In this document: one piece after another, positions 777-59,384 of the stretch
Numbering within the stretch: position 1 is the stretch's first letter
How the letters are laid out: each line of letters opens with the position of its first letter
NCBI GenBank assembly: GCA_029939545.1
Contig: JAOZSS010000002.1
Span: 1 to 59,384, forward strand
Direction: 5' to 3'
DNA from: Kiritimatiellia bacterium
GTDB lineage: Bacteria > Verrucomicrobiota > Kiritimatiellia > UBA8416 > JABMPJ01
DNA: 59,384 nt
The notes under the pieces: generated by a model
Seen by the model: the letters and a program-made list of their open reading frames with translations, nothing else
Databases searched by the model: none
Told to the model about the DNA's origin: nothing
Position numbers and translations under genes: made by a program

Positions 777-918
777 ATGGGGTGCCACCGCGTGGAGCGG
801 CGACCGGATCATCGTTCTGGAAGATGGCCGCATCACGCAGATGGCCCCCCATCACATTCTCATTGCGTGGGAAGGGCTAATTGCCATATCTACGAGTAAC
901 GGGACGCATGGTAGCTTT

Positions 919-13555: not shown

Positions 13556-13644
13556 GTTACCCACTGCCCGCCGACTCCGGCGGGCAAAACTGAAACGAGC
13601 CTGTACCATAGCGGAGTGGAGGGGCGGGATCAATGAGAAAGGCA

Positions 13645-19435: not shown

Positions 19436-19593
19436 CCGGGCACGCTCGCAGGGCATCACCGCGTGCGGTTCCCTAATATATGGGGGGCGCTTAGTCGCAT
19501 GAGTGAGAGCGGAAGACCGGTTACACCCCTCGAGGAATAGCCCTTCTGATAAAGGGTATTGAACTGCTGCATAGGTGGGCGTAATCTGTGTCT

Positions 19594-22500: not shown

Positions 22501-22782
22501 GGTAGCTCCGATGAGGCTGAGTTCGCAGCGGGCACCAGCCCCACCGATGCGACCTCGGTCCTCAGTATCGAGCGTGTTGTGCCGATGGCCGATGGCGCGG
22601 GATACGTTGTGGAATGGGCGAGCGAACCGGGGCGAGTCTACACGCTGGAACACTGTGAGGCGTTGGGAGCAGGTTATCAGCCGGTAGCAGGCAACATCCC
22701 GGCCACGCCCCCTGTGAACACGTATAGCGTGAGCGGCCCACACGCAGCCGTGGGATTCTACCGGGTGAGGATTCCGCAATGA
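19594..22782 (+). CDS. giant secreted multidomain protein: BNR/Asp-box propeller + TolB-like (PD40) propeller + FGE-sulfatase (SUMF1) domain + TSP3-like Ca-binding + C-terminal domain
   Basis: Signal peptide MTKRAILFGVAALCLALAVPGW. At least 5 Asp-boxes (STDIGQSW, SINGGQSW, SRNNGVSW, SSDGGQSW, SDDAGGTW). PD40-like repeats (SPSGAQIVYQ, FTRDGTQVVFTR, DPDGSN). FGE motifs (GGTFQMG, VNVTWNDAAAFAAWAGKRLPTEAEFEYAMRGG, GNVNEWCYDWY, RSGSW, GFRCA). DSDGDGSSDEAEF. Confidence 0.7.
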   Translation: MTKRAILFGVAALCLALAVPGWTVEYTSSEVRPAGDVDGYWDSVAASGDGRTLIAGHYDGRLYTSTDIGQSWVERQPAGDTNLYWSGVACSGDGAVMLAASAWDMYTSPGRLYASINGGQSWAEEQPAGDADLIWTALACSADGRTVLVGVGGGIGGRLYIQRGGPGNAWLETQPSGPTNFLWTSVACSGDGSVLMGCARSGGVYLSRNNGVSWTQVLPTGPQTELWSAVAMSAFGQHLYVAHGFDGGRLYGSSDGGQSWDELRPGGDTDIGWSGLACSGNGRGVLAVAEYGRAYASDDAGGTWDEWVPSGASNHAWQSATMSVDGRRVTAGQGPGRLYSGAITSGVSRFFYEASDSNGVSQIWTCLTDGSGELQLFDDSNNRYLVAVSADQTKLAYIMNDGALKWICTSDINGTNERKLISTDTTDAFGCVNWHPDGVHLIYTERTDNGSRNGDVFRCDTSGSNIENLTSNWTYNKHYAAYAPDGAQFCMGRNETGWYAFPQNLFVCDADGSNERILTDHGAGEDKKVNTCRYSPSGAQIVYQLGYGSNDSGIWTIRPDGHYQSNIIVAGAFRNQGPAFTRDGTQVVFTRYTGGRWQLATCDPDGSNVQVLSMSSALNRKQPCHAVVEGLASLAGRVRCDMWPPRAVVEGARWRLTEGADVEWHDSGEVSDLLAVDQNPYTVEFDYITDYCEPEDVDVTISHGVISEVDGVYMPCDMAYINGGTFQMGLYLGQGGHSVTLDDFMMDYGEVTVAEYQSYCFDTGQTMPDPPPWGWSNSSLPVVNVTWNDAAAFAAWAGKRLPTEAEFEYAMRGGAADQLYPWGDTISSESANYMGAAIGQPTVAGSFASSSYYLYDIAGNVNEWCYDWYEAPLTGPVTNPIGPASGAYKVSRSGSWVNRARQLRCSSRIYRNQSVRYIDLGFRCAAEAGQGYMEEQFAGAPDWWVFSHFGLEVGGPGGWYDPLRDSDGDGSSDEAEFAAGTSPTDATSVLSIERVVPMADGAGYVVEWASEPGRVYTLEHCEALGAGYQPVAGNIPATPPVNTYSVSGPHAAVGFYRVRIPQ

Positions 22783-35332: not shown

Positions 35333-35352
35333 AGTCAATGAGAGAAGGGAGA

Positions 35353-36582
35353 ATGGCGACATTTTCATATACGGCTAAGCAGGACGATGGCGAGATGGTG
35401 CGTGCCACGTTGCGTGCCGATTCGCGTCATGCCGCCCTCGGCCTGCTGCGCGGTCGTGGCCTGATTCCCCTTTCGGTGGAAGAGGTCGGTCGCGGCCGGG
35501 TGCGCGCCAAGAGCCGTAAGCGCGGCAGCTTCACGCGTTGGGGCGGCGCTATCTCAACCAGCGACAGGGCGATCTTCTGCCGTCAGCTTGCCATCTCCGT
35601 CAATGCCGGCGTCCCCCTGCGCGAGTCGTTGGAGTCGATTACGGAAGACCTCGATAAACCCGCCTTCAAGCGCGTGCTGGAACACATTGTTGATCAGTTG
35701 CATGCCGGCGTATCATTCTCCGATGCCTTGTCGCAACACCCGGCCACATTCAACACGCTGTTTGTCGCCCTGATCCGGGCGGCGGAGGAGTCGGGCAGCC
35801 TGCCCCAGACACTTGAGCAGTTGGCCGTGGCGGAGGAGCGTTCGCAGCGGTTGCAGACCAAGATTCGCAGTATCACGGCCTACCCGATCTTCATTGCCAT
35901 CTTCTTTGTGGTGGTCTGTGTCATCATGACTCTGTACGTCTTGCCAAAGTTTCAGGAGATTTTCAGCGGCTACAGTTCCGAGCTGCCTCGCGTTACGCGC
36001 ATGGTTTTCGGGCTCAACCAGTTCATGATCGATAACGCCCTGCTCATCGGCGGGGGATTTGCATTCGTGGTTATTGGCCTTTATCTGTGGGGGCGTACGG
36101 TGGCGGGCCAGTACATGTTTGATGCTATGAAGCTCAAGCTGCCTTACTTCGGTCCCTGCTTCATGAAGTTTGCCGTGTCACGCTTCTGTCAGAATTTCTC
36201 CGTGATGATGAAGGGGGGGGTGCCGGTGGCCACGGCCATGGAGATGTCGGCGGCAACCTGCGGCAACCGGGTCATGGAGAAGGCGCTGCTCGAGGCGCGC
36301 GACCGAATCATTGATGGCGCCGGCATTTCCGAGAGCCTTGAGCGCGACGTCAGGCTTCCGCGTCTGGTGGTGCGCATGGTGAGCGTCGGCGAGTCATCCG
36401 GACGGCTGCCCGAAGTGCTCGAGCGTATCTCGCTGGTGTACGAGGAACAGGTGGAAGCCGCGATCATGGTCGCCACCTCACTTTTCGAGCCGCTTGTGAT
36501 TTGTCTGTTTGGTATAGTAGTATTGATTCTGGTAATGGCGGTGTATCTGCCGGTGTTCTCGGCAGCCGCGTATGGGTCGTGA
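35353..36582 (+). CDS. pilC: type IV pilus platform protein PilC (GspF family)
   Basis: Two T2SSF repeats (FCRQLAISVNAGVPL / FCQNFSVMMKGGVPV) and three TM segments. Confidence 0.9.
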   Translation: MATFSYTAKQDDGEMVRATLRADSRHAALGLLRGRGLIPLSVEEVGRGRVRAKSRKRGSFTRWGGAISTSDRAIFCRQLAISVNAGVPLRESLESITEDLDKPAFKRVLEHIVDQLHAGVSFSDALSQHPATFNTLFVALIRAAEESGSLPQTLEQLAVAEERSQRLQTKIRSITAYPIFIAIFFVVVCVIMTLYVLPKFQEIFSGYSSELPRVTRMVFGLNQFMIDNALLIGGGFAFVVIGLYLWGRTVAGQYMFDAMKLKLPYFGPCFMKFAVSRFCQNFSVMMKGGVPVATAMEMSAATCGNRVMEKALLEARDRIIDGAGISESLERDVRLPRLVVRMVSVGESSGRLPEVLERISLVYEEQVEAAIMVATSLFEPLVICLFGIVVLILVMAVYLPVFSAAAYGS

Positions 36583-47153: not shown

Positions 47154-48533
47154 CTATCCGTACGCCTCAGGGCCGGGCTCCGGGATCTCTTCGAGCAGTT
47201 TGGTGACGATGTCGATCGATCCGATGCCCTCGGAGTCTGCCGCGAAGTTGGTTAGGATGCGGTGACGCAACACCGGTGCCGCTGCGTGGCGGATATCGCT
47301 GCACCCCACATGGATCCGTCCCTCCAGCACCGCACGCGCCTTGGCGGCCAGAACAAGATACTGCCCGGCACGTGGACCCGCACCGGTCGAGACGAAGTTC
47401 TTGGTCACCTCGGGAGCATCGTCATATTGCGGCCGCGTGGCGCGCACCAGTCGGATGGCGTACTTCACGACGTGGGCTGACACGGGGACTTTGCGGACCA
47501 CTTCCTGTAGTTTCAGTACATCCTCCTTCGTGATCACGCACTCGGGTGTCTGCACGGTCCCGGCCGTTGTGGACCCGACAATCTCCTCCTCTTCGTGCGC
47601 CTCGGGATAGTCGACCCAGATGTTGAACATGAAACGGTCCAATTGCGCCTCGGGCAGCGGATAGGTTCCTTCCTGTTCAATCGGGTTCTGCGTGGCCAGC
47701 ACGAAGAACGGCGCATCAAGCTTGTAGGTCTCGTTGCCGACCGTGACGCGCTTCTCCTGCATGGCTTCCAGCAGGGCGGCCTGGGTCTTGGGTGGCGTAC
47801 GGTTGATTTCATCGGCGAGCAGCAGGTTGCAAAAGATGGGTCCCTTAACAAAGCGGAACTCCTTCTCGCCGGTATCGCGGTTGCTCTCCAACACCTCGGT
47901 GCCGGTGATGTCGGTCGGCATTAGGTCGGGCGTGAACTGGATGCGCTTGAATTCAAGGTTGAGGACCTTGGCCATTGTGCTCACGGTGAGGGTCTTGGCC
48001 ATGCCGGGCAGCCCGATCAGTAGCGCGTGGCCGTGGGCGATGATGCACATCAGGATCTGGTCGAGCACTTCGCGCTGACCAACAATGACTTTTCCGACCT
48101 CGGCGCGGATCGCATCGGCCCGGTCCTTCATCTTCTCAACCAGGGCGAGCTCATCGCTTGTTGTATCTGCGGCAGGCATTGCAGCGGACGTTGCAGTGGG
48201 CTCTGCGGCCGGTTCGGGGGCGGCTTCGCCCTCCTTCACGACCTCACCGTTCAAGCGGAAGGTGCAGACCGTCTCACCCAGTGTGATCACGTCGCCGTCC
48301 GCAAGCAGCGAGCTGGCTACCATTTTCCCGTTCAGGGCCGTGCCGTTGGAACTGTTGAGATCTGTGATCCGCCACGCATCGCCGTCGGGTTGCAGCTCGG
48401 CATGTTGACCGGATATTTCGCCGTCCTCGATAACCAGGTTGGCCTCTTCGTCGCGCCCTATGATCAAGGCGGAGTCGGGTAGCTCCATTTCCTGTCCGGA
48501 AAAAACACCTTCGGTGAAAACTAACTTGGGCAT
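47154..48533 (-). CDS. FHA domain fused to MoxR-family AAA+ ATPase
   Basis: FHA region ([24 protein letters not shown]...[14 protein letters not shown]). MoxR core ([82 protein letters not shown]). Confidence 0.85.
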
Positions 48534-48561: not shown

Positions 48562-49305
48562 CTAACGGGTAAGCTTTATTTCGCCAAGATCTTTGATTGA
48601 ACGCGTCACGCGAACACCGCCCAGTTTCGCGGCATAGTTGTGTCGGGGTAGGGGTGCACCCGGCTCGTACGACACGGGGTAGAGATCGCGCGCCCGCGTG
48701 ACCTGCCATCCGGGGCCCACATCCTTGAACAGGAGCAGCTTGAACGTGCGCCGGAACTCCCGGTGGCCTTCAGCCGATGACGTATCACGCACAAAGGTGC
48801 AGATGGCGCGGGCCGTGTTCCCACGGCCGGTGGTGCCTTCAAGACGGTGGATGAACTTCTTCTTGAAATAGGGTTCCGAGGCATTGACGATGTTCTTGAC
48901 CTTCTTGCGATCCTCCTTCGTGAGCGTGTTGGGTTCGCGGTGGAGGCGCAGCCCCTCGTAGAAACGATCCTTGTAGATCACGATCAGGTCATACTTGCGC
49001 ATCGGCAGTCCCTCGAACAGGAAACTGCGCCTGTTGCTGCCGGTGACCTTGCCTTTGTACACAAAACGGGGCTCATCCGCGGGAAGCGCCAGAACCTGCT
49101 CAATCGGGAGCCCCGGCGAGGCGATGGAGCCCTGGATGCCGCCCGTGGCGGAAGGGTCGGATTTTGTATAAAGGAAGCCGCGCCCGGGATCAATGGTGCC
49201 GTCGTCCCTGATGATACGAACACCCACTCCGACCGATTCCCGGGTCTCAGCCGTGGCTGTGCCGACCACAAGGAGGATGATGCCCAGGAGTGCGAGTGGC
49301 TTCAT
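48562..49305 (-). CDS. exported protein of unknown function
   Basis: Signal peptide MKPLALLGIILLVVGTATA. ATGA overlap with the upstream gene. No recognisable domain. Confidence 0.5.
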   Translation of the reverse strand: MKPLALLGIILLVVGTATAETRESVGVGVRIIRDDGTIDPGRGFLYTKSDPSATGGIQGSIASPGLPIEQVLALPADEPRFVYKGKVTGSNRRSFLFEGLPMRKYDLIVIYKDRFYEGLRLHREPNTLTKEDRKKVKNIVNASEPYFKKKFIHRLEGTTGRGNTARAICTFVRDTSSAEGHREFRRTFKLLLFKDVGPGWQVTRARDLYPVSYEPGAPLPRHNYAAKLGGVRVTRSIKDLGEIKLTR

Positions 49306-51497
49306 AATGTGTCCTTGGTTGCCTCGCGGTGGCCATCATCCTTGAGCTCATCTTCCGACATCTGTATCCAGCGATCGAATCGCTCAGCCTGGGGATGGAA
49401 CTGGAGGCGCTTGCGGGCTTCGACGCAGAAGGCCTTGAGCGAGGCGGTCGGTTCCTCCATGTCGATCAGGCAGTCGAGCAGGGTCTCCAAGGCGTCCCCC
49501 ATGTAGCTCGACGCCTCCAGGGCGTCGCAGTAGCCTTCCAGCAGTCGGCGGGCGCGGCGAGGCTGGCCTACCGATCGGTAGAGCTTCGCTTCCAGTAGCA
49601 TCAGATCTCCCGATATCTTACTCAGCGGGAATTGGCGTTCCCAGTTGCGCAATACATCATGCATTTCGGCATAGGCGCCCTGATCGAGAAAGGTCCGCGC
49701 TGTCTCGGAAGCCGCCGCTTCGAGTACGGCCTGGGTCTTCCAATCCTTCGAGCGTCCCCGCGACTGTGACCGGCGGTAGCTGCTCTGTACATCATCATAG
49801 TGCCGGGTCGCATCGTTCAGGTTCCCATCGAGAAACTCAACGTCGCCAAGGCGGATCTTGGCCCACTGGCGTGTCTCACCGGCACCACCGGAGAGTCTCA
49901 TGAGAATCTTGCGGGCGCCGACCAGGTCATCCATGTAATACATGAGGATTTCGGCTTTCCTGATCTGCAGCATGCTCCCGTCGGCTGCTCCAAATCGATC
50001 GGCCCAGTCGATGGCGGCCTTGGGGTCGACGACCGGGGCCACCGTGAGAAAATGGTCCTGTAGAGTCGTGAGGTGGTCGCGGGGCGCAGAGCGTTTGAGC
50101 GCATCCCAATGTTTGGAAAACAGTGTGGCCAGCAATACCTTGCCTTCTCCGAACGCGAGCGTGCGTCCCAGGTTGTTCCACATGCTCTTGTCCCAGTCGT
50201 GCGTCGGGTCCATGCCTTCCGGCGTTGCGCGGACGATGGCGAGACAGGCAGCACGAAAGGCTTCACGTGCCGTGGAGTCATCCAGCGAAGTTTCTGCATC
50301 GCTGTAGGCGTAGAAGGGGCGCACGGCTCGGGTCTTCTGCTTGCCCATGGCGGTGGTTAGGGCAATGGTGTGTTCGCGGACGCCCCTGAAGAGCCATGGA
50401 ATGCCGGATGCGCTGATCTCACGCTTGCCGGGCATTGTCCAGGTGTACGTGGTGTCCGCCGGGTTGCCCTTCGTCACGGCACCGACCCGGTAGTAAATGA
50501 GCGGCTTCTCGCCCTCGAACCAGTAGGTGTGCACCGGTTGCATGCGTATGACCGGCACGGGCGCGCCGTCGCGTGAGCCGACGCTCGCGAGAAGGGATCG
50601 TCCTGAACGAACAATCTCTTCATCGGCCACCACGCGGCTGGCCCACTTGGCGGTGCCAGGAAACTTCTCATACTTGGGGCGTGGGCCGCCTAAATCCTCC
50701 ATCGTGCTTCCCGGTGGCGCCCACGTCATCCATATGGCCCCTTTGTCCTCGATGAATGGACCCGGAATGCGGCAGGCGGAAAGGATGTCGAGCCGGTGCA
50801 GCCCTTCAGACAGGGTCCGGTATTGGCCGACGCCGCCCCACTTGTCGATCCGCTTGGAGAGCGAGATCGTCTTGCCGTTGATGCTAACCTTGGACTGCCC
50901 GGAAATGGTCATCGGCGCCAGCCATGTCCGGCCGGGCTTCTTCAGCTCCAGGTAAGAGAGCAGGTAGAACGCACAGGGGTCCGGGCGGCCCGTTGGGTCT
51001 CCTCCGATACAGAGCGCAGCCATGGGGTGACCCGGGTTCTGTCGGAAGTGTACGCGTGGACTGACCGATCCGAATCCGGCCAGGCGCGAGGCGGCCCCCA
51101 TGTCGCCGCGATCGGGATTGGCGCATAGGATCGAGCTCGGGGTCAGCCCGGTTTCGGGTTTCCACACCTTCAGGCTGCGCCCTGGCACCACGTAGATATC
51201 GACCGTGGTCCCTGCGGTGGGGGCCTCAACGACAGTGGCCAGGCCGGAGCCCTGATTGTGCCAGAGGGCATAGCTCTTCAGTGGGGACCCATCCTCCGCG
51301 AACGCGCGTGTTACAGGATAGGGTTCTGGGAGGATGCCGCCATCCGGAATGACGACGAAATAGCCCGCACTCTCATGCGTCGGAGCGGTGGAGAGGTGGT
51401 ACGTAAAGCGCAGGGGGGCTTCGCCGACCTTCCAGTCGGCTGCGACCGGGAGCGCCAAGCCAGAAATCAGTGCCAGCAACAGAAAACGGCTATTCAC
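49302..51497 (-). CDS. exported 731-aa protein of unknown function with helical-repeat (TPR-like) C-terminal third
   Basis: GTG start and signal peptide MNSRFLLLALISGLALPVAA. Overlaps both neighbours. No recognisable catalytic motif. Confidence 0.5.
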   Translation of the reverse strand: MNSRFLLLALISGLALPVAADWKVGEAPLRFTYHLSTAPTHESAGYFVVIPDGGILPEPYPVTRAFAEDGSPLKSYALWHNQGSGLATVVEAPTAGTTVDIYVVPGRSLKVWKPETGLTPSSILCANPDRGDMGAASRLAGFGSVSPRVHFRQNPGHPMAALCIGGDPTGRPDPCAFYLLSYLELKKPGRTWLAPMTISGQSKVSINGKTISLSKRIDKWGGVGQYRTLSEGLHRLDILSACRIPGPFIEDKGAIWMTWAPPGSTMEDLGGPRPKYEKFPGTAKWASRVVADEEIVRSGRSLLASVGSRDGAPVPVIRMQPVHTYWFEGEKPLIYYRVGAVTKGNPADTTYTWTMPGKREISASGIPWLFRGVREHTIALTTAMGKQKTRAVRPFYAYSDAETSLDDSTAREAFRAACLAIVRATPEGMDPTHDWDKSMWNNLGRTLAFGEGKVLLATLFSKHWDALKRSAPRDHLTTLQDHFLTVAPVVDPKAAIDWADRFGAADGSMLQIRKAEILMYYMDDLVGARKILMRLSGGAGETRQWAKIRLGDVEFLDGNLNDATRHYDDVQSSYRRSQSRGRSKDWKTQAVLEAAASETARTFLDQGAYAEMHDVLRNWERQFPLSKISGDLMLLEAKLYRSVGQPRRARRLLEGYCDALEASSYMGDALETLLDCLIDMEEPTASLKAFCVEARKRLQFHPQAERFDRWIQMSEDELKDDGHREATKDTL

Positions 51498-51831
51498 CTT
51501 TCGCTTTCTGCTTCTGCTTCGCGACGGGCCGTGCGAGCACTCTCTTTGCCGATACTCTGCCGCGCGTTTCCCTGAGCTTCGTGATCAGCACGGGCGGCTG
51601 TGGCGGCTTCTTGGCTTCGGTTCGCGATAGCGGGGTTACGGGACAGCAGCAACACGCATCCATCGTATCTGCCGATGAAGCGGTACGCGGTGGCGCAGGC
51701 GGCTTCTTGCGGTTGACCGGAGGCGGAACAAAGCCCTGTTCGTCGGATCCATCGCCAGCGCCCAAGACGGTTCCCGAGCACAGTGTGGCGGCCAGAATAG
51801 GCACCAAACCTCTGCTAAGCTTCTTTTTCAT
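51490..51831 (-). CDS. small exported Pro/Lys-rich protein with CCCC motif
   Basis: Strong GGAGG Shine-Dalgarno 6 nt upstream of ATG 51831, 20 nt after the ycaO stop. Signal-peptide-like MKKKLSRGLVPILAATLCSGTVLGA. Mature part is PPPVNRKKPPAPP...DACCCCPVTPLS...KKPPQPP...KQKQKAKGE. Confidence 0.45.
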   Translation of the reverse strand: MKKKLSRGLVPILAATLCSGTVLGAGDGSDEQGFVPPPVNRKKPPAPPRTASSADTMDACCCCPVTPLSRTEAKKPPQPPVLITKLRETRGRVSAKRVLARPVAKQKQKAKGE

Positions 51832-51851
51832 ACGCGACCTCCATCTGCATA

Positions 51852-53102
51852 CTACCACCCGCTCGGATAGGAGTTCAAGACCTCATCCCGGGTCCATCGC
51901 CGATACAGAACGTGACTGTTAGGAGGATGGTAGGGGAGCGCATCCGAATAGCCCGGCACGACGACCTGCACCACGGGGAATCCGATCTCCGGATCGGTGA
52001 AATCAACCACGAAGCAGTCGAGACCGAGCTTGGCATAGATGGCGAGGGCCTGCTCAATGTCGTCCAGGCAGTCGTCTGACGGGGTGCCCGGGTCAAATGG
52101 AACCCGCTCACCGTCTTCGAGGAAGGCGGCATGCGTGAACGGTACAAACCCGAACATGAAAGCGGAGAGGAGGTTGTCTTCGTCATCTCCCGTACATTTC
52201 AGGTTGCGGAAATCATGCTTCAAGACGCGCTCCTGGTCGGCAGGCCGGGCTTCGATGAACTCGTCCAGCCGCCGCCCCTGCACGTACTCGGTGAAGACGC
52301 GTGTCAGGGCCAGCTCGCGGTTGAAGGCCGCACCGACCTTGAAGAAGTGATGAAACTGGAACGCCTCGGGAATGTTTGGGTCGCGGAAGTAGGCCCCGAT
52401 ACAGGGCAGCTCTCCTCCGAACGAGAGATCCTTGATCGTGACCTCAATGCCCTTCTCCTCCACAAAAGCCAGTAGCTCCTGAATCATCGGACTTGGAATC
52501 GATGCGGGGTCGATCGTGGGCACCACCATCCTGTTCTTGAGGATGGTGATGTGCGTACGGCGCTCGAAGATCTCGGTCATCGCGTGAACCAGGGCCTCCT
52601 CCAAACGGTTCCCGGACGCCAGTCCGTTGGGTCCGCTGATCAGGCGGATATACTCAATGGGCAGTGAAACGGTCTTCTTGCTCAGCAGCGAGAAGCCGTC
52701 GACCCAGTGTCGCGCACAGTCGAGCGCCTTGATGCACTCCAGCAGCGCCGGTGTGAGGCTGGATACATGTGGCAGCATCGCTTCAATCGGTAACGCGTCT
52801 GCAATCTCGTCCTGGTATCCAACCCTGTAGCCTGGCAGCGACGTTACCGCGCGCGCCGCCATCCATTCAGCACTCTCAGCCAGCGCACCGGCCCGGCTCC
52901 ACATCTTGGAGGTCCCTTTGCCCATCGCCCGGAACTCAAGCTCATCAATAAACAGGGCCGACCAATGCAGGTGCTCCGCCACCTCTTCTTCGATGAATCG
53001 GTAGTCATATCTGGCGCGCAGGATCGGCTCCAGGCGAGCAACCGTATGCTCCGGTGTCTCGCAACGCCCCCCCGCTATTCGTTTACAGCTTTGTAGTTTC
53101 AT
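51852..53102 (-). CDS. ycaO: YcaO-domain protein (ATP-dependent amide-backbone activating enzyme family)
   Basis: RCETPEHTVARLEPIL, GKGTSKMWSRAGALAESAEWMAAR (E-x-x-E ATP/Mg site), GPNGLASGNRLEEALVHAMTEIFERR and VVVPGYSDALPYHPP near the C-terminus. Confidence 0.85.
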   Translation of the reverse strand: MKLQSCKRIAGGRCETPEHTVARLEPILRARYDYRFIEEEVAEHLHWSALFIDELEFRAMGKGTSKMWSRAGALAESAEWMAARAVTSLPGYRVGYQDEIADALPIEAMLPHVSSLTPALLECIKALDCARHWVDGFSLLSKKTVSLPIEYIRLISGPNGLASGNRLEEALVHAMTEIFERRTHITILKNRMVVPTIDPASIPSPMIQELLAFVEEKGIEVTIKDLSFGGELPCIGAYFRDPNIPEAFQFHHFFKVGAAFNRELALTRVFTEYVQGRRLDEFIEARPADQERVLKHDFRNLKCTGDDEDNLLSAFMFGFVPFTHAAFLEDGERVPFDPGTPSDDCLDDIEQALAIYAKLGLDCFVVDFTDPEIGFPVVQVVVPGYSDALPYHPPNSHVLYRRWTRDEVLNSYPSGW

Positions 53103-54343
53103 CCTGTTCTCAACCCCGGTGGTGGCACGCCCTCACCCGGCGAAAGCCACCCATCAATATCGGTTGCAGCTTGAATCCCCTCTGCGATGCATTGGGCGAC
53201 GGTGGCGCCGCCATTCAGCATGCCGCCGGCGGTGAAGACGTTGTCGGCGGATGTGTCGGGGAGGTCGTCGGCCACTCCGAGTTCCATCGCTTCAATGACG
53301 AGGGATACGGGCATAATCCTCTCGCCTCCGGTCATGGCACGTCCTGCGGACGGCGGCAGGACATGTGCGACGCGCAGACCTGTCACACGGCCCCGCGCGC
53401 TCGTCTCGTACCCCAACGGCTGTGTGAGCGGAAGGTAGTGTACCCCTTCGCTCTTGAACCAGTCCTCGCTCCGATGCCAGTGCATTTCCGAGCGCGGCCC
53501 TCCATAGACAATGTAGACGTTGCGTGCCCCCAGCCTCTGCGCGGCGACGGCGGCGTCCATGGCACAGTCGTCGCCGGCGAGTACCACGACTTCGTCGGGA
53601 ACAGTGGTGCGTGATCCGGCTTTGGTCTCACGAAGAAAATCGATACCGCTCATCACGTTCTCTGCCGCCCCCAGTGAAGACTCCTGCCATAAGCCAACGG
53701 CGACGAGGACGGCATCGTAACGGCTGCATAGCGACTCGAGTTCAATATCCTGCCCGAGCGCTTCTCCCAGGCGCAGGGTCAGGCGGCCGACCGACAGGGC
53801 CGGCGCGAGCACGGCATCGATCTCCGGTTGGATGTTGGGCAGGCGGCGCGATGGAATCAGGATGTGAGGCGTTCCACCCAAGGCGCTTTCCCGCTCGATG
53901 ATCGTAACGCGGTGTCCCTGTTCGAGGAGCCTGACCGCGCACGCGATCCCCGTGGGGCCGCCGCCCACGATCCCAATGTGTTGTCCAGACTCCCTGTCCG
54001 GCAGGACTACGCCCGGCAGACCGGTGTCACGCGCCAGCCATGCTACGGTGTACTGAATGTCCAGGATAGGCGTGGGATCCTGCCCCAACGCACGTTCGAC
54101 GCGGGCGCCTTCGTTGAAGATCCACGGGGGAGTCAGATGCGAGCACAGCTCGGGCAGCGGGTTGGTCTGTCTCAGGATCTCGTAGCTGCGGGCACTGTCG
54201 CCATCCGCGAATGCCTTGACGAAGCCCGATACATCGGTGTGGTCTGGGTAGGCCGCACTGTAGCACGCTAAGGCGGACGCATGACAGCGACGCGCCTGGT
54301 CGACCAGACGATCGGGATCGTATGTTTCCGAGGGGCTACTCAT
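53099..54343 (-). CDS. GltD-like FAD/NAD(P)H oxidoreductase with degenerate N-terminal Fe-S domain
   Basis: Two dinucleotide folds (IGIVGGGPTGIACAVRLLEQGHRVTIIERESALGG; VVVLAGDDCAMDAAVAAQRLGARNVYIVY). N-terminal helical region is like the glutamate synthase small subunit, but the Cys ligands are largely absent. Confidence 0.75.
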   Translation of the reverse strand: MSSPSETYDPDRLVDQARRCHASALACYSAAYPDHTDVSGFVKAFADGDSARSYEILRQTNPLPELCSHLTPPWIFNEGARVERALGQDPTPILDIQYTVAWLARDTGLPGVVLPDRESGQHIGIVGGGPTGIACAVRLLEQGHRVTIIERESALGGTPHILIPSRRLPNIQPEIDAVLAPALSVGRLTLRLGEALGQDIELESLCSRYDAVLVAVGLWQESSLGAAENVMSGIDFLRETKAGSRTTVPDEVVVLAGDDCAMDAAVAAQRLGARNVYIVYGGPRSEMHWHRSEDWFKSEGVHYLPLTQPLGYETSARGRVTGLRVAHVLPPSAGRAMTGGERIMPVSLVIEAMELGVADDLPDTSADNVFTAGGMLNGGATVAQCIAEGIQAATDIDGWLSPGEGVPPPGLRTG

Positions 54344-55316
54344 TCGCCACCTTCTTCCCTACAGGCGCCATGTAGATCGCGAACTCCTCCTTTCCGTCCA
54401 CCCCGATGAGCGCGTCCATCTTGACCTGGTTGTAGGCGAGCATGGCGCATACGCCGGCACCGATCGACTCGGCGGCGAGGTAGAGGTTCTGGCAAACGTG
54501 GCCCGCTTCAATGGCAATCATGCGGTGCGCAATGGGACCGTAGCGCCACTCGGTACGGTAGGGGACGGCGGTCCAGACAAAGACGACGGCCGCCTGCGGT
54601 GGGGCGGTCTGTCCGTAACATGCCGCCTTGATCCTGGGTGCCAGTGCGGCATCCTCACGAATCTGGATCAGTGCATGCTCGTGCGGCAGGTAGCGGTAGA
54701 TCCCCGGCACCAGGCCCTCCACGCGATTGAGAAGGAGATAGGTCTCGAACGGATGTCGCGCTCCGCCGGATGGCACCGTGCGGTACTGGTTGACAATGCG
54801 GCCTTCCGCATCGCGGTCGACCTTGGCGACCCCCTGCGTACACCACAGCAGGAAGCTCAGCTCCGCCCGTGTGAGGGGCTCGGCCGCATAGGCACGCACG
54901 CTGCGTCGCCGCACAATGGCATCTTTCAACGGCATCGTGCCAAGGTCGAGCGTTTCCGGGTGGGGGAGGGCCATGCGTTTGGCATGGGTCGGCACCGGTT
55001 GCGCTGCCGGGGGAGCGGGTAGGCCCTTGCGCTGATCGGTCTCGGTACGCCAGTCCCCCATATACCCTTTCAGGAAGACGCGCAACTGTTCCCGTGGCAG
55101 CTCTGCGAGTGGCTGGACCTCGGTGGCATGGGCGCACAGCGGAAGGAACAGCAGGACGAAGAGGACGCTGGTGTTGTAATTCAGAAGTCCGCGTAGTACA
55201 TGGTTGTCATTCCGAGCGAAGTCGAGGAATCTCCAAGTCATTGGGTGCCACGGAGATCCCTTGGCAAGCTCGGGATGACATCGTGGATCGATCTCTCTTT
55301 CGGATCTGGCCGTCAC
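54336..55316 (-). CDS. SagB/ThcOx-type FMN dehydrogenase (nitroreductase fold) with hydrophobic N-terminal segment
   Basis: IVRRRSVRAY, FLLWCTQGV, YRTVPSGGARHPFETYLLLNRVEGLVPGIYRYLPHEHAL, AIEAGHVCQNLYLAAESIGAGVC. Start is either GTG 55316 (4 nt after the upstream stop) or ATG 55241. Both lie in or next to a palindromic repeat. Confidence 0.8.
   Translation of the reverse strand: MTARSEREIDPRCHPELAKGSPWHPMTWRFLDFARNDNHVLRGLLNYNTSVLFVLLFLPLCAHATEVQPLAELPREQLRVFLKGYMGDWRTETDQRKGLPAPPAAQPVPTHAKRMALPHPETLDLGTMPLKDAIVRRRSVRAYAAEPLTRAELSFLLWCTQGVAKVDRDAEGRIVNQYRTVPSGGARHPFETYLLLNRVEGLVPGIYRYLPHEHALIQIREDAALAPRIKAACYGQTAPPQAAVVFVWTAVPYRTEWRYGPIAHRMIAIEAGHVCQNLYLAAESIGAGVCAMLAYNQVKMDALIGVDGKEEFAIYMAPVGKKVANE
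55206..55279. repeat. 74-nt palindromic element (arms GTCATTCCGAGC / GCTCGGGATGAC) of the widespread GTCATTCCGAGCGAAGTCGAGGAATC type
   Basis: Read directly. 12-bp outer stem (one G-U) with inner complementary GGAATCTCC/GGAGATCC. Translates as the familiar spurious VIPSEVEES / LDFARNDN peptides. Confidence 0.75.
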
Positions 55317-55319
55317 AGG

Positions 55320-58300
55320 CTAAAGCGCCTCGTTGAGCTTCTTGTAGTAATCGGCGACGAGGTTGCGGTAGCGCGGTGGCGCATCGTCGGGGCCAGCCGC
55401 CAGAACATCGTCGAGGAGTGCGGATGAGCGCCCACCGGTGAGTGTTGCGGAGGGGCCGGCCTGGAGCTGGGTCCGCGCGCGCTTGAGCGCCACAACCGCC
55501 TGCTTGCGGTGCTCTTTGATCTGCTCGATCGACCGCCCTGCGGCAACCGCATCGGCCGCCTGCCGCAGGTGATGGGCGGCGGTCTTGAAGGAATCGGCCC
55601 GAATGTTCTTGAGCGATGCCTTGGTGTACATGGCATCGGCCTGCTTCGCCATCAGGGCTTCCATTCCGTCGAGCGAACCCTCCTCGGTGGAGTCCATGCG
55701 CCGTGTGCCGCCACCCATGCCGATATCGTCGGCTTTGCCGGAGGCCTGCTTGCCGCCGCCGGTGGCTGCGGTGGTGGCTTCACCGTCCAAATCAACCTGT
55801 CCGTCCTGGGTGGGATCCTGTGTGCGACGAGCCTCGATATTCGAATCGCCTTCGCCGATCGTGCCGGACCCGGACGCGTTCTCTCCCACGGCCATGCCCT
55901 CGCGGCCCACGTTGGATCGGCCATCCTGTTCCTTATGGTCAGGAGTCATGTTGCCCGACTTACCCTTGGCCGAGAAGCCGGTAAGGTCGCCCTCCTTCAC
56001 TTCCCATCCGATCCCGGGATCGTCACCGACGGCGTGGTTCGACGCGCCGTCAACAGCTTCCTCGGCACCCTCCTCGGCCTCTTCGAGTAGATCGCCAATC
56101 AGGTCCTCGGCTTGGGCGGCCAGCGCACCCAGGGCGATGCCTTCTTCCGGCATCTCTTCCCGGTCCATCGCCTCGGTGGTGATGACGTCGTCTTCTTTCT
56201 CGTCCTGCAACCATTCCTCGAGCTTTTCAAAGCGCTCCTCGGCCTCCTCCATCCTCTCGAGCAGGTTCTGACGGTCACGCTTGGCGTAAGCCTTCTCGGT
56301 AGGATTCTCAACGTCAATGCCGGCGGCCTCCTGCTCTTCTTCGTCCATGATCTCGTGCTCTTCAAAGATGCTGAAGACATCCTCGACCAGCTCGTTGGCG
56401 ATGCTTAGCTCTGCGAAGATATGCAGGTCGCGCGGAATCTCCAGGAGGGCTTGCTTCGTGTTCTTAAGGATCTCCTGGTATTCCTCCTCCATCATATCGA
56501 TCATCTCTTCATTCGACGCGTCGCCCTGCTCTTTTACCATATCCATGGCCTGAATGGCTTTCTCGTGAATCGCGCGGATCTTTTCGAGCTTCTCACCCGC
56601 AAACTGCAGCACATCGAGCATCTGCTCCTCGCGTTCGCCCTGCTCGGATGCCTTGATCGCGTTTAGATGGTTCTGCAGGGCTTCCAGCTTGGTCAGAGCT
56701 TGCTTCTCGTCGGGAAGCGCGGCGGTGGGCTGGTTGTTGTCGAGGTCTTCGGCGGCCAGCAGCATGTCCTCGCGAATGCCGGCGTCATCGCAGCGGGTCG
56801 CGAGCTCGATGAGAATGGAGGCGAAGGCCTGGTCGTTGGCCGCAACAGACGCGGACTCCTGTTTGCAGGCATTGCCGAAGTCCGTGAGATCCTCGGCCAG
56901 GTCGTCCTGCATGTCAACCACACTGGATCCGACCTCGGTTCTGGTCTTGGCATACTTCTGCGTATTCTGGATGACCAGCGTCTCTCTGCGGATGAGGGCG
57001 TCCAGCATGTTGGAGAGCGCGCTGACGCGTTGTTCCACGCGGGTCCGTACGGCACCCGCCTGCGCGTAGGTGAGTTGCCTGAGAATCTTCTCCTCCATGT
57101 TGATGGCATCGTTGCAGAGCGTGGCCTTATTGTCATTCACGGGCAGGCGCGCGAGGATCTCGATGACCTCCCGCATTTCGTTCAGGTAGAGCGCTTTCGT
57201 GGCGGGCGTGAGACTGCCCAGCGGCTCGCCCGGCGCGGCCAGCAGGTCGCGCGTTACCATGCGGATCTGGCGCTGCTGTTCGGCCGCCCCATTCCACTGC
57301 TGCGCGGTGGTGGCCATGAGCGTGGCCTGGCAGGCGCGGGTGCGGGCAATGTTGTCGCGCTGCATGTCGATCAGACGCCCGAGCGTGGAGGCGACTTCTT
57401 CGTCGAGCTTCCTCTGCTCTTTGGCGGCATCCGCCAGCGATGCCGCATTGAAGAGGATGGTGTCGGAACGGACGGTGTGGGGCTCGCCGGGCCGCGTGTC
57501 GCGCGCGACGAGGCGGAATGCGATGGTGCGTCCCTCCTGCTCGTCAATGGCCTCACTCCAGAGCGTGACGAACGACTTCGCCCTGCCGGGGGTCCACGCT
57601 CCAACCTTCTCGCCTGCCTCGCTGCGCTTTGAGCCGGGCTGTACTCGTTCGAGCCACAGGTCGACCAGGCCGTAGTCATCATCCACGGCAAAATCGATAG
57701 TAGGCTTGGTGCCCTGCGGCAACGTGGGGCGGCCGGTTGGGGCAATGATCGTGATGACCGGCGCGTTGTCTGGAATAATGGTGAAGCCCACCTCCGTATC
57801 GATGCTCTCGCCATACGTGTCGGTCGCGCTGATCGATAGGCTGGTGCCCTGATGAATGGTGAGTTCCGCTGCTCGTCTGTTTTGCGCGTCGGCTGACAGG
57901 GGTTGCAGTGGAATGGGGGTGTCCTGTTGGAGCTGGGCGGATGCGGAAGCGAGTGCTCCGTTACAGGTCAATGTCAGGGCTACGCGCGAGCCTTCGGGGA
58001 TCGCGATCGTATCGGCCAGGCCGTCGAACGTCGCCGGTGCGATGCCGGTGTAGGGGGGCGGGGTGACGGTCAGTTCAACCGCAGTGCAGGCCAGCGGGGG
58101 GCGCGGCGTAATCTCGAACCACTCGGGAAAAGGTGCGTCTCCGGCACGGAACCGGTAGCGCACGGCCGTGGTCAGCAGCGGAATGCGATGCGAAAAGCGT
58201 TCCTCGGGGTCGCCTTTGATGGTCCCGAGCGTGTGGGTCGAGGCGTCGCCGTCGGCGGGTCTGATATCCAGCAGTACGCGGTGGCCTTTATGCCCCGCCA

Positions 58301-58991
58301 CCGTGCAGGCGAGTACCAGCGGCTTGCCCTGTAGTGCTGTGTCGTTGCCCGGTGTTACGGTCAGGAGCTGGGTGAGACTGACCGGCGGGGTGTCGGCGAA
58401 CGGGTTGGTCACCCGCCACATCGCGGTGGCCCAGGCGCGTCCGGTCAGGGCGGTAGGCAGCAGGATGACCGCCAGCGCCACAGAGAAACCCGCGAAGGCC
58501 CAGCGGTGGAGTTTCCTGTTCTTCATGCGCTTCACACTGACCGTGTTCCATCCCCTGACGTCACGCTTGAGATACGCGTTCTTGAAGGGATCGTTTCCGG
58601 GCGTGGCTGCAAACTGGAGATAGTTGATCAGGTGGTTGTCGAGCTCCGGGAACGCGTGCTCCACGGATGCCGCAACAGCCTGCGGATTGAGCGGGTGGCG
58701 CACGGTGCGCAGCAGCCACCAGATCGTAGTCCCCACCACGCCGAGCAGGAGCAGGAAGACGGTGAAGCGCGCCGGTCGACCGAACTGGAGCAGGAGATCT
58801 GACAAGACAAACACGAACAGCCCGCCCAGCATCACGGCGGTCCCGATCATCAGCCGCACCTGCGCCTGCCAGCGCCGCACCGTCCGGCCAATGCGTCCCA
58901 GTTCCTTGTTGAGTTCTGCCTGCGTCATCCTTGTTCTTCCTGCCTGGATCACACCACCACCGGGGTTGCCCCGGTGGTGGCCGAGAGCCAT
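55320..58991 (-). CDS. giant membrane-anchored protein, DUF4175-like (N-terminal TM hairpin, beta-rich middle, coiled-coil, highly acidic region)
   Basis: TM helices MIGTAVMLGGLFVFVLSDLLL / FTVFLLLLGVVGTTIWWLL, followed by AASVEHAFPELDNHLINYLQF. Long E/D-rich segment. C-terminal PPRYRNLVADYYKKLNEAL. Family name is from memory. Alternative start ATG 58928. Confidence 0.6.
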   Translation of the reverse strand: MALGHHRGNPGGGVIQAGRTRMTQAELNKELGRIGRTVRRWQAQVRLMIGTAVMLGGLFVFVLSDLLLQFGRPARFTVFLLLLGVVGTTIWWLLRTVRHPLNPQAVAASVEHAFPELDNHLINYLQFAATPGNDPFKNAYLKRDVRGWNTVSVKRMKNRKLHRWAFAGFSVALAVILLPTALTGRAWATAMWRVTNPFADTPPVSLTQLLTVTPGNDTALQGKPLVLACTVAGHKGHRVLLDIRPADGDASTHTLGTIKGDPEERFSHRIPLLTTAVRYRFRAGDAPFPEWFEITPRPPLACTAVELTVTPPPYTGIAPATFDGLADTIAIPEGSRVALTLTCNGALASASAQLQQDTPIPLQPLSADAQNRRAAELTIHQGTSLSISATDTYGESIDTEVGFTIIPDNAPVITIIAPTGRPTLPQGTKPTIDFAVDDDYGLVDLWLERVQPGSKRSEAGEKVGAWTPGRAKSFVTLWSEAIDEQEGRTIAFRLVARDTRPGEPHTVRSDTILFNAASLADAAKEQRKLDEEVASTLGRLIDMQRDNIARTRACQATLMATTAQQWNGAAEQQRQIRMVTRDLLAAPGEPLGSLTPATKALYLNEMREVIEILARLPVNDNKATLCNDAINMEEKILRQLTYAQAGAVRTRVEQRVSALSNMLDALIRRETLVIQNTQKYAKTRTEVGSSVVDMQDDLAEDLTDFGNACKQESASVAANDQAFASILIELATRCDDAGIREDMLLAAEDLDNNQPTAALPDEKQALTKLEALQNHLNAIKASEQGEREEQMLDVLQFAGEKLEKIRAIHEKAIQAMDMVKEQGDASNEEMIDMMEEEYQEILKNTKQALLEIPRDLHIFAELSIANELVEDVFSIFEEHEIMDEEEQEAAGIDVENPTEKAYAKRDRQNLLERMEEAEERFEKLEEWLQDEKEDDVITTEAMDREEMPEEGIALGALAAQAEDLIGDLLEEAEEGAEEAVDGASNHAVGDDPGIGWEVKEGDLTGFSAKGKSGNMTPDHKEQDGRSNVGREGMAVGENASGSGTIGEGDSNIEARRTQDPTQDGQVDLDGEATTAATGGGKQASGKADDIGMGGGTRRMDSTEEGSLDGMEALMAKQADAMYTKASLKNIRADSFKTAAHHLRQAADAVAAGRSIEQIKEHRKQAVVALKRARTQLQAGPSATLTGGRSSALLDDVLAAGPDDAPPRYRNLVADYYKKLNEAL

Positions 58992-58997
58992 CGCCCG

Positions 58998-59384
58998 CTA
59001 CGGAAGCTTATACACCTTCACATTATTAATCGATACGCCCTGCGCCGTCCATATATAGACCGAGAAGAAGCGGACCTGCCGGAGATGTTTCTTGGCGGCC
59101 GAGGAGAGCTTCTGCATGGGGAAGTCGAGCGAGATCTTCTTCCATGAACCCGGGAACCCGGTCTCGGCTTTGCTCTTGTAGACCATGCGTGTCTCGCCAG
59201 GGCAGGGGGTGTCGTGTGGGCGTACGCCGGGCTTCCAGCGATAGCCGGCGAAGTAGACGCGCGTGGGCCCATACTTGTTCTTCGTGTTGGCCTTCAAATC
59301 CATTGTGCAGCGGTAGCGGGCATTGGGGTCGAACTTGATGAGCTGGGTCTCCACCTTGTTCTCGCCGCCCTGCTTAGGCGTAAT
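58998..59384 (-). CDS. hypothetical protein, C-terminal part (5' end outside window)
   Basis: Reading frame stays open to the window edge beyond the listed GTG 59354. Ends ...FFSVYIWTAQGVSINNVKVYKLP, 6 nt before the next gene. Jelly-roll-like ending, but no family assigned. Confidence 0.5.
   Translation of the reverse strand: MTPKQGGENKVETQLIKFDPNARYRCTMDLKANTKNKYGPTRVYFAGYRWKPGVRPHDTPCPGETRMVYKSKAETGFPGSWKKISLDFPMQKLSSAAKKHLRQVRFFSVYIWTAQGVSINNVKVYKLP

Follow-up and report, generated by a model that had tools for sequence, protein, structure and literature searches.

YcaO enzymes are very numerous, and most of them are without a known substrate. The YcaOs that form azolines typically have an E1-like, Ocin-ThiF or RRE partner and a proline-rich C-terminal tail (PMC8442711). 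The same article also cites the standalone YcaOs of bottromycin biosynthesis, which form a thiazoline or a macroamidine without a partner protein (PMC8442711). Modification before export is known from the bufferins, Sec-exported metallophores belonging to the RiPPs (peptides synthesized by ribosomes and modified post-translationally), in which MNIO (DUF692) enzymes convert cysteines to heterocycles in the cytoplasm (PMC11626156). Here we analyze a small gene that directly follows a ycaO gene in a 59,384-nucleotide stretch of a Kiritimatiellia bacterium genome (assembly GCA_029939545.1, contig JAOZSS010000002.1, positions 1 to 59,384; "the window" below). The small gene encodes a protein with four consecutive cysteines (CCCC). 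Sequence comparison identifies this protein as the N-terminal arm of a periplasmic DUF4159 protein, detached as a gene of its own. In detached and fused arms alike, the CCCC motif co-occurs with a YcaO module, in which YcaO is joined by a SagB-like enzyme and an Fe-S flavoprotein. On this comparative evidence, there is a somewhat better than even chance that the arm, through its CCCC loop, is the substrate of the YcaO module, while the specific chemistry at the loop is less certain than the role of the arm as substrate.

All functional statements in this text come from comparative genomics. The clusters have been compared by context look-ups and by tblastn with the cluster proteins over ~115 related loci. 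The loci of the relatives were viewed with 10-kb flanks, which limits the genes that can be counted as absent, and signal peptides were judged by eye from the sequence throughout. A search of the literature library used here returned nothing linking YcaO with MoxR/VWA genes, with DUF4159 (including DUF4159 together with BatA) or with these phyla, and the system appears to be undescribed. The sole paper found on Verrucomicrobia and YcaO concerns linear azol(in)e-containing peptide (LAP) clusters of the candidate phyla radiation, and a paper on the genome content of the Planctomycetes-Verrucomicrobia-Chlamydiae (PVC) group is silent on these genes.

The small open reading frame (ORF) is read from the minus strand, with its ATG at 51831 and its stop codon at 51490-51492. 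Exactly 20 nt separate it from ycaO (51852-53102), and the p731 gene (49302-51497, GTG start) overlaps its stop codon by 8 nt. The features of the small gene are as follows.

51490..51831, minus strand: the small ORF, 113 aa, a putatively exported, Pro-rich, tetra-Cys "arm" protein (from the translation, the homologues and dN/dS, the ratio of nonsynonymous to synonymous substitution).
51838..51842, minus strand: GGAGG Shine-Dalgarno sequence, 6 nt ahead of the ATG (read from the sequence).
51757..51831, minus strand: residues 1-25, signal-like N-terminus with the conserved LAATLCxGT motif and an invariant C18 (alignments, entropy).
51568..51756, minus strand: residues 26-88, the conserved core GDGSDExGFVPPP..KKPPAPPRTASSAET..CCCC..PVTPxSRTEAKKPPQPPVLITKL (alignment of homologues), equivalent to residues ~30-92 of the fused DUF4159 proteins.
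51643..51654, minus strand: the CCCC codons TGT TGC TGC TGT, residues 60-63, which align with the YP(G/P)P of a PYP(G/P)PP segment.
51490..51567, minus strand: residues 89-113 and the stop codon, a basic tail that varies in length and sequence in the alignment and is not conserved.

The peptide bearing the four cysteines reads ...TMDACCCCPVTPLSR, and the only cysteine outside CCCC is C18. The coordinates and the translation agree with the initial annotation, which had reported a 113-aa ORF, 20 nt after ycaO and with a GGAGG, whose mature part has four consecutive cysteines and no other; the strand and the 8-nt overlap with p731 had gone unmentioned there. A search of 5.8 billion proteins finds 259 homologues at E<=0.01 with 58-100% identity. 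The carriers belong to the Lentisphaerota, Kiritimatiellota, Verrucomicrobiota and Omnitrophota. Where sources are named, the homologues come from Lentisphaerae, Chthoniobacteraceae and Kiritimatiellia, and the GTDB loci add Victivallales, Akkermansiaceae, Spartobacteria and Omnitrophota. The locus closest to the window (L007) is from a metagenome-assembled genome of the Victivallales, a proximity that by itself would probably place the window in this order. One further CCCC gene is found on a contig (L014, CAYLGX010000031.1) assigned to "Candidatus Woesearchaeota archaeon"; the other carriers are all from the PVC group, and the archaeal assignment probably results from misbinning. Of 120 homologues, 118 keep CCCC, the exceptions being one FCCC and one SCCC, and the small proteins of two loci (L025 and L076) carry five cysteines in a row. 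Thus the small ORF with four, and sometimes five, cysteines is kept in syntenic clusters of four phyla, the comparison that the initial annotation had called for, and lack of conservation of the ORF or of CCCC, which it had named as grounds for dropping the idea, is not what is found.

Residues 13-88 are conserved across phyla almost position by position. Against the closest locus, the core has dN=0.046 and dS=1.03, giving a dN/dS of ~0.04 and indicating strong purifying selection; dS is saturated against every other relative. The small protein is the most conserved protein of the cluster (~70-79% identity), compared to ~65% for MoxR, ~59% for YcaO, ~54% for p247, ~44% for the big protein and ~36% for p731. 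The small ORF is therefore a genuine gene. The GC-rich DNA does hold many overlapping ORFs, and a chance, untranslated reading frame could arise in it; the 259 homologues, the dN/dS value, the Shine-Dalgarno sequence, the conserved position and the existence of fused versions refute this idea, whose remaining probability is negligible. The small protein falls into no Pfam or NCBIfam family.

The N-terminus has a basic n-region and a hydrophobic h-region. An AlphaFold2 model of the small protein alone shows a helix at residues 6-18, with the rest extended and no fold (mean predicted local distance difference test score, pLDDT, 61; predicted template modelling score, pTM, 0.16). A Sec-targeted, intrinsically extended and proline-rich protein is plausible from these features, and the bufferins give a precedent for the Sec-type N-terminus that had been noted earlier. 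A lipoprotein reading of the ATLC motif was considered and is not upheld as a firm call: a canonical lipobox is found in none of 120 small proteins, although 13 of 120 fused relatives have one. Cleavage by signal peptidase I and an uncleaved membrane anchor are both possible. Binding of nucleic acid or of an anionic envelope polymer by the basic C-terminus had also been suggested; the tail is specific to each lineage in sequence and length, so such binding is not a conserved function.

The origin of the small protein is indicated by its distant relatives. A profile of the small protein searched against 1.84 billion representative proteins matches 47 clusters only, and the distant matches, down to 1e-13 and beyond, include proteins of 259-512 aa. 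Four of them (P0261, P0266, P0271 and P0279) are shown or named as DUF4159 proteins, and the small-protein module forms their N-terminus. The fused N-terminus reads, in order, a signal, GDGSDExGFVxPP, PPPPPAN..GET, (I/V)PYP(G/P)PP and xPxSRSEKKNPPxPPxxFTKL, followed by the DUF4159 domains, so that the pattern GDGSDExGFVxPP...R(S/T)E(K/A)KxPPxPPxx(F/I)TK stands at the DUF4159 N-terminus. A hidden Markov model of the module matches fused ORFs in six of the related loci (L028, L032, L079, L090, L104 and L118). The fused arm-DUF4159 family has at least 595 members, with Kiritimatiellae and Lentisphaerae as the named sources, and 112 of 115 fused members have no cysteine at the PYP(G/P)PP site where the small protein has CCCC.

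The AlphaFold2 model of one fused member has a pLDDT of 84 and a pTM of 0.81. In this model, the GDGSDE..PP segment has a pLDDT of 71-81, while the stretch equivalent to CCCC (residues 52-76) falls below 50, consistent with a flexible loop. TLFTKL, the counterpart of VLITKL in the small protein, is modelled as a beta-strand (E87-92, block-mean pLDDT 81-88), and the standalone DUF4159 proteins start right after this strand. The profile homology, the fused model and the start sites of the standalone DUF4159 proteins together support the small protein as a split-off DUF4159 arm, and in the light of the model, it probably donates the VLITKL strand to DUF4159 in trans. The modelled DUF4159 fold is ThuA/GATase1-like. 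A Foldseek search with it returned only an uncharacterized ThuA/GATase1-like structure (4i66) and glutaminase domains, with no functional clue. In two metagenomic proteins (P0270 and P0272), the arm module carries PGGR in place of CCCC and follows an anti-sigma-factor-like N-terminal domain and a transmembrane (TM) helix, with no signal peptide. From this sequence layout, the two proteins would be anchored in the membrane and face the periplasm, and the arm module may have a regulatory use in them.

The link between CCCC and the YcaO module was followed across the related loci. In a scan centered on the big protein, all ten CCCC loci that were adequately covered have one or more of the genes for SagB, flavoprotein and YcaO; seven show all three genes and the other three (L069, L108 and L110) a subset. 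On the other hand, neither YcaO nor flavoprotein is seen at nine distinct non-Cys loci. One non-Cys cluster (L104, loop PYPPPP) has p220 through FHA-MoxR and no SagB, flavoprotein or YcaO, and it is bounded on both sides by unrelated genes, one for phosphoenolpyruvate carboxykinase and one for a PHO4 transporter on the opposite strand. Similarly, the cluster of L090 stops at FHA-MoxR with unrelated genes next, and none of the three module genes is visible. YcaO lies directly beside the small ORF in several gene orders, including those of three loci in which it stands apart from SagB and the flavoprotein (L023, L026 and L083). Loci of the Chthoniobacterales without YcaO seemed to be a refutation at first. 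YcaO was later found ~17 kb away in the same supercluster, and it had not been visible at the loci centered on the small gene because the flanks were limited to 10 kb.

The link does not depend on the arm being detached. In L118, a fused DUF4159 protein of 506 aa (659-2179, minus strand) reads ...LLATLCADT...MMACCCCPVTPMSRSEAKK..., with both ATLC and CCCC, and SagB, flavoprotein and YcaO are encoded in the same cluster. By its sequence, the candidate YcaO substrate in this organism is a full-size protein. The same cluster has an extracytoplasmic function (ECF) sigma factor and a FecR-type anti-sigma factor inserted as a pair between YcaO and a p220-like gene; the second stretch singled out in this locus is 12418-14210, plus strand. 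The signal region co-varies with the loop as well: ATLCxGT accompanies the Cys types, L022 and L118 among them, and is absent from L028, L033 and other non-Cys types, and the entropy of the signal h-region is 1.5 bits in the CCCC type compared to 2.57 bits in the non-Cys type. This co-variation fits a dual role of the region as signal and leader. Three variants keep the CCCC-type flanks (PPR..SSAET / RTEAKKPPQPP) with an altered loop. L022 (10001-10255) has the loop PGGCTTP and retains YcaO nearby. L028 (5146-6756, loop FPPPP) and L033 (460-744, loop EGGA) have lost the cysteines, on contigs too short for YcaO to be counted as absent. These three are the best natural tests of co-loss. In another variant (L034), the gene right after YcaO encodes a RiPP-maturation radical SAM C-methyltransferase of 622 aa (TIGR03975, 454 bits; cut-off 282). 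The radical SAM gene of this locus (284-2152, plus strand) is followed by a standalone DUF4159, with no small ORF between these genes, and the C-terminal stretch of the radical SAM protein appears winged-helix-like by eye only.

In the window, the module is part of an operon on the minus strand, whose other members are the following.

51852..53102, minus strand: YcaO, 416 aa, without a signal peptide (PF02624, 1.1e-53).
53099..54343, minus strand: GltD-like Fe-S/FAD NAD(P)H oxidoreductase, 414 aa (Fer4_20 and Pyr_redox_2), called the flavoprotein here.
54336..55316, minus strand: SagB-family protein of the nitroreductase fold with a signal-like N-terminus and an uncertain start codon (TIGR03605, 131 bits, cut-off 78).
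55320..58991, minus strand: membrane protein of 1223 aa with N-terminal TM helices, a conserved cluster member (no Pfam match).
59001..59357, minus strand: C-terminal part of a p202 homologue (tblastn 5e-30), where the window end cuts the operon.
49302..51497, minus strand: p731, putatively exported, TPR-like towards its C-terminus (unmatched in PDB and Pfam).
48562..49305, minus strand: p247, putatively exported, of unknown fold (by synteny; the PDB profile search gives noise only).
47154..48533, minus strand: FHA-MoxR AAA+ ATPase, with which the operon ends (AAA_3 3.9e-63, FHA 1e-17).

YcaO keeps the ATP/Mg2+ motif NGLASGNxLEEAxxHAxxEIFERR, which aligns with MJ1094 and E. coli YcaO, and has ~60 residues ahead of the YcaO domain match. 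It is roughly equidistant from the characterized YcaOs (MJ1094 3.6e-16, E. coli YcaO 2.7e-12, TruD/LynD ~1e-10). The best NCBIfam matches are the McrA and S12/RimO families, both below their cut-offs (92 against 700 bits; 79 against 365); TIGR03266, the McrA-type thioamidation clade, is matched at 79 bits with a cut-off of 365, which places this YcaO outside the clade. An exact look-up of the window YcaO sequence returned no record. The flavoprotein is cytoplasmic, judging from its sequence. Most of its orthologues are FadH-like fusions of old yellow enzyme (OYE), 4Fe-4S and FAD/NAD(P)H parts, about 800-860 aa long. The SagB-like protein keeps the RRSxRxY motif, which we take to be the site for the phosphate of flavin mononucleotide (FMN). 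A signal-like segment or a lipobox is present at its N-terminus in all seven orthologues (the window, L007, L008, L011, L019, L027 and L029), with clear lipoboxes in L029 (LALLAAGC|DSK) and L011 (ATVSC|DR). A SagB-family FMN enzyme predicted to be in the periplasm is unusual. Pfam finds neither MNIO (DUF692) nor its DUF2063 partner in the operon.

Based on these observations, we tentatively propose that YcaO has been recruited to an arm of an envelope machine, where it would turn CCCC into a run of contiguous thiazol(in)es or thiazolidines in place of PYP(G/P)PP, with the redox steps divided between the cytoplasmic flavoprotein and the periplasmic SagB-like enzyme; as a whole, this model has a real but less than even chance of being correct. 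In the cytoplasm, ATP-dependent YcaO would activate the backbone amides of CCCC in the pre-protein, and attack by the cysteine thiols would give up to four contiguous thiazolines. Thiazoline formation is favored because it is the only known YcaO reaction that requires cysteine side chains. The flavoprotein before export, the exported SagB-like FMN enzyme after export, or both would then set the oxidation state to thiazole or thiazolidine, and Sec would export the modified arm protein. In the periplasm, the flanks (GDGSDExGFVPPP and the KKPPxPPV-LITKL beta-strand) would dock on DUF4159, and the modified loop would sit where the relatives have the polyproline-like PYP(G/P)PP. There, the complex would display a rigid, S/N-rich run of heterocycles, which could serve either as a spacer with the stiffness of proline or as a site for metal or redox chemistry. 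We infer the order of the steps and the role of the modified loop.

Several observations weigh against this proposal. The SagB-like enzyme is predicted from its N-terminus to be periplasmic, in the compartment of the mature arm and not in that of YcaO, which makes a joint cytoplasmic YcaO/SagB step unlikely, and it has WRY where CyaGox has WKY, so that RY stands at the expected catalytic KY. No E1-like, Ocin-ThiF or RRE partner is found among the operon proteins with Pfam and NCBIfam, and a PxPxP ending is absent from all 120 YcaO orthologues compared, 94 of which lack proline within their last 10 residues. The nearest solved YcaO, MJ1094 (3.6e-16 over 150 residues), forms thioamides. The flavoproteins of the window and L007 have the GltD-like half only (Fer4_20 and FAD/NAD(P)H), with the window protein matching only residues 419-826 of an 830-aa orthologue; since the OYE/FMN half is gone, the catalytic flavin domain is missing or is supplied by another protein. 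The docking of the arm is read from the pLDDT and DSSP (secondary-structure) output. The CCCC-type sequences may form one clade, and with a possible single origin, the association with YcaO may rest on few independent events. A fused form with a single cysteine (L079, loop PFPCPP) has a ThcOx-type oxidase and no YcaO within view. An 84-aa SCCC variant of the small protein (L001, 10001-10255 of a 508-kb contig) has no cluster genes nearby. The surroundings of this SCCC gene (L001 and L002) consist of many short ORFs without Pfam matches, along with genes for IF3 and for MT-A70 and D12 methyltransferases.

Some of these points would also fit other explanations. One is that CCCC goes without modification and serves the Bat-like complex in the periplasm as a metal, Fe-S or thiol-redox site, that the YcaO module has another target and that the two occur together through acquisition in a shared ancestor. 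The exported SagB-like enzyme, separated from the cytoplasmic YcaO, the missing recognition partner and PxPxP tail and the possible monophyly of the CCCC types all agree with it. There are moreover YcaOs whose targets are large proteins or that help other enzymes (McrA, S12/RimO), and these are the families of the best NCBIfam matches. For the Bat operons, a connection with periplasmic redox and aerotolerance has been drawn, which also speaks for such a site. At the same time, this explanation leaves unaccounted for that YcaO adjoins the small ORF in several orders even away from SagB and the flavoprotein, that no adequately covered CCCC cluster lacks the module and that the signal-region motif co-varies too; the cysteine side chains are also the very feature that azoline-type YcaO chemistry needs. 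We therefore regard an unmodified site as unlikely. Another explanation keeps the arm as the target and changes the chemistry, with YcaO installing thioamides or an amidine in or near CCCC and the flavoprotein supplying reducing power or sulfide. The closest solved homologue, the McrA-thioamidating MJ1094, and again the missing tail and E1-like partner point in this direction. MJ1094 works without TfuA, and the GltD-like Fe-S flavoproteins include NADPH:sulfur oxidoreductases. However, thioamidation needs no cysteine in the substrate, so four invariant cysteines would go unexplained. TfuA gave no match among the window operon proteins scanned with Pfam and NCBIfam and was not searched for at the related loci, and a SagB-family dehydrogenase whose score exceeds the curated threshold is characteristic of azol(in)e pathways. 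Taken together, this makes the thioamide or amidine alternative quite unlikely.

A classical RiPP, in which the leader or signal is removed to release a free poly-azole metallophore or antibiotic of the bufferin or LAP kind, is improbable. A small Cys-rich ORF beside YcaO and SagB would be expected of such a system, the bufferins are a precedent for the Sec signal, and a RiPP-type radical SAM enzyme stands next to YcaO in L034. A RiPP of this kind would not be expected to have residues 13-88 conserved across phyla with no variable core, nor to recur as the N-terminal arm of 500-aa DUF4159 proteins, one of which has CCCC. No leader protease or dedicated exporter gene is found in the cluster, and the neighbors make up an envelope machine and not a biosynthetic cluster. 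Instead of a free-standing RiPP precursor with a variable core, we see a protein that is conserved more than any other in its cluster and is homologous to the DUF4159 arm, and instead of a small biosynthetic operon, part of a supercluster of ~15 genes of the MoxR/VWA (Bat-like) type. The initial annotation's proposal of CCCC as a site for YcaO and SagB survives in part, since the motif tracks YcaO across gene orders while a joint cytoplasmic step with the exported SagB is unlikely. The chemistry that it named, azol(in)e or thioamide, is made less certain by the E1-like partner, PxPxP tail and TfuA that were not found in the window operon. We return to the arm as the likely substrate of YcaO, with thiazoline formation as the favored chemistry.

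The wider surroundings, judged by gene content, are a Bat-like MoxR/VWA envelope supercluster of PVC-group bacteria. Its ~15 genes encode DUF4159, p220, p274, DUF58, BatA-VWA, a GATase1-like protein, p202, a ~1200-aa protein, the SagB-like enzyme, the (OYE+)Fe-S flavoprotein, YcaO, the small protein, p731, p247 and FHA-MoxR. A neighborhood of MoxR AAA+, DUF58 and BatA-VWA was looked for and found, with FHA-MoxR in the window and DUF58, BatA-VWA, GATase1-like and DUF4159 in syntenic loci. In L007, which shows the same order, the GATase1-like and p202 genes lie upstream. The order YcaO-small-p731 is shared by the window, L007, L008 and L024. L019 and L027 have the order ...FHA-MoxR-SagB-flavoprotein-YcaO-small, and L011 has small-SagB-flavoprotein-YcaO-DUF4159. 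L018 reads small-flavoprotein-YcaO without a SagB match, L023 and L026 read p274-YcaO-small-DUF4159, and L083 reads YcaO-small-DUF4159. In the Chthoniobacteraceae (L005, L029, L066, L070, L095 and others), the small gene is divergent from DUF4159, and YcaO lies ~17 kb off at the far end.

Signal peptides are seen in the small protein, p731, p247, DUF4159, p220, p274 and p202, while YcaO, the flavoprotein and FHA-MoxR have none. In L005 (7871-8533, minus strand), p220 begins MDRRTFLSAAF..., a twin-arginine-like signal. With this signal, export in a folded or cofactor-loaded state is possible, and at least one periplasmic member, p220, may be exported in this way. Neither Pfam nor NCBIfam matches p731, p247 or the 1223-aa protein, and profiles of p731 and p247 searched against PDB sequences gave noise only (E>=0.05). 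The window genes downstream of FHA-MoxR are convergent and unrelated. Elsewhere in the window, there are genes of ordinary function with no apparent link to the cluster: an H+-pyrophosphatase ORF (11099-14257, minus strand) with ~260 extra N-terminal residues as called, an FGE-sulfatase-domain protein (19588-22782, plus strand), a TPR/polysaccharide-deacetylase/GHL13 protein (27362-30166, minus strand) and protein F of a type II secretion system (35338-36582, plus strand).

The interest of the system is that one sharply defined four-Cys loop is offered as the candidate substrate of a YcaO, with the PYPGPP-type relatives without a visible YcaO as natural negative controls, in the poorly studied yet widespread phyla Lentisphaerota, Kiritimatiellota and Verrucomicrobiota. 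If the proposal is true, YcaO chemistry would extend beyond peptide natural products to structural proteins that are exported. The system would be a first case both of an azoline-type modification on an exported protein, of 506 aa in some genomes, and of a SagB-family oxidase in the periplasm. It would also be the second kind of Sec-signal precursor modified before export, mechanistically unrelated to the bufferins, and the first functional handle on the Bat-like MoxR/VWA clusters, whose role has been obscure since the 1990s. The case also illustrates that the genome-mining rule "small ORF beside YcaO" can mistake a fragment of a larger protein for a RiPP.

Compared with the described systems, the arm proteins resemble the bufferins in their size of 80-120 aa, in an N-terminus that for the arm proteins is a putative Sec-type signal, in conserved cysteines that are candidate sites for heterocycles formed before export, and as conserved "physiological" products rather than variable antibiotics. 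The enzyme is different, with an ATP-dependent YcaO here in place of MNIO and its DUF2063 partner. The bufferins are folded mini-proteins, whereas the arm protein, known here from its sequence and with metal binding only proposed, is predicted to be unstructured and Pro-rich, is homologous to part of a larger protein and belongs to a MoxR/VWA cluster. With the LAPs, or thiazole/oxazole-modified microcins, such as microcin B17 and plantazolicin (YcaO, E1-like protein and SagB/McbC), the locus shares a YcaO and a TIGR03605 SagB-family protein beside a Cys-rich ORF. Contiguous azoles are known among these linear azol(in)e peptides. Unlike the LAP clusters, the locus shows no E1-like, Ocin-ThiF or RRE protein, no PxPxP tail, no leader protease and no ABC exporter, and its dehydrogenase is predicted to be periplasmic and has RY for KY. 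A short LAP precursor would have a conserved leader, a variable core and a leader protease; here, the Cys-rich site is present, the core is invariant and there are fused versions of 506 aa.

The bottromycin YcaOs, which act on cysteine without a partner, are a precedent for the proposed chemistry, although they belong to an unrelated sequence family and act on an unrelated precursor, which carries a follower peptide and is without a Sec signal. The YcaOs of McrA thioamidation and of the E. coli YcaO-RimO-S12 system are the nearest characterized relatives by sequence, and as proposed here, their target is a functional protein. Their targets are, however, cytoplasmic and their reactions independent of cysteine, and the scores found here are far below the family cut-offs. 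The gene neighborhood itself is closest to the Bat (Bacteroides aerotolerance) operons, with which it shares MoxR AAA+, DUF58, BatA-VWA and TPR-like and exported partners. The PVC version adds DUF4159, the GATase1-like protein, the 1200-aa membrane protein, p731, p247 and an FHA domain on MoxR, and a subset of it further adds the YcaO module and the CCCC arm.

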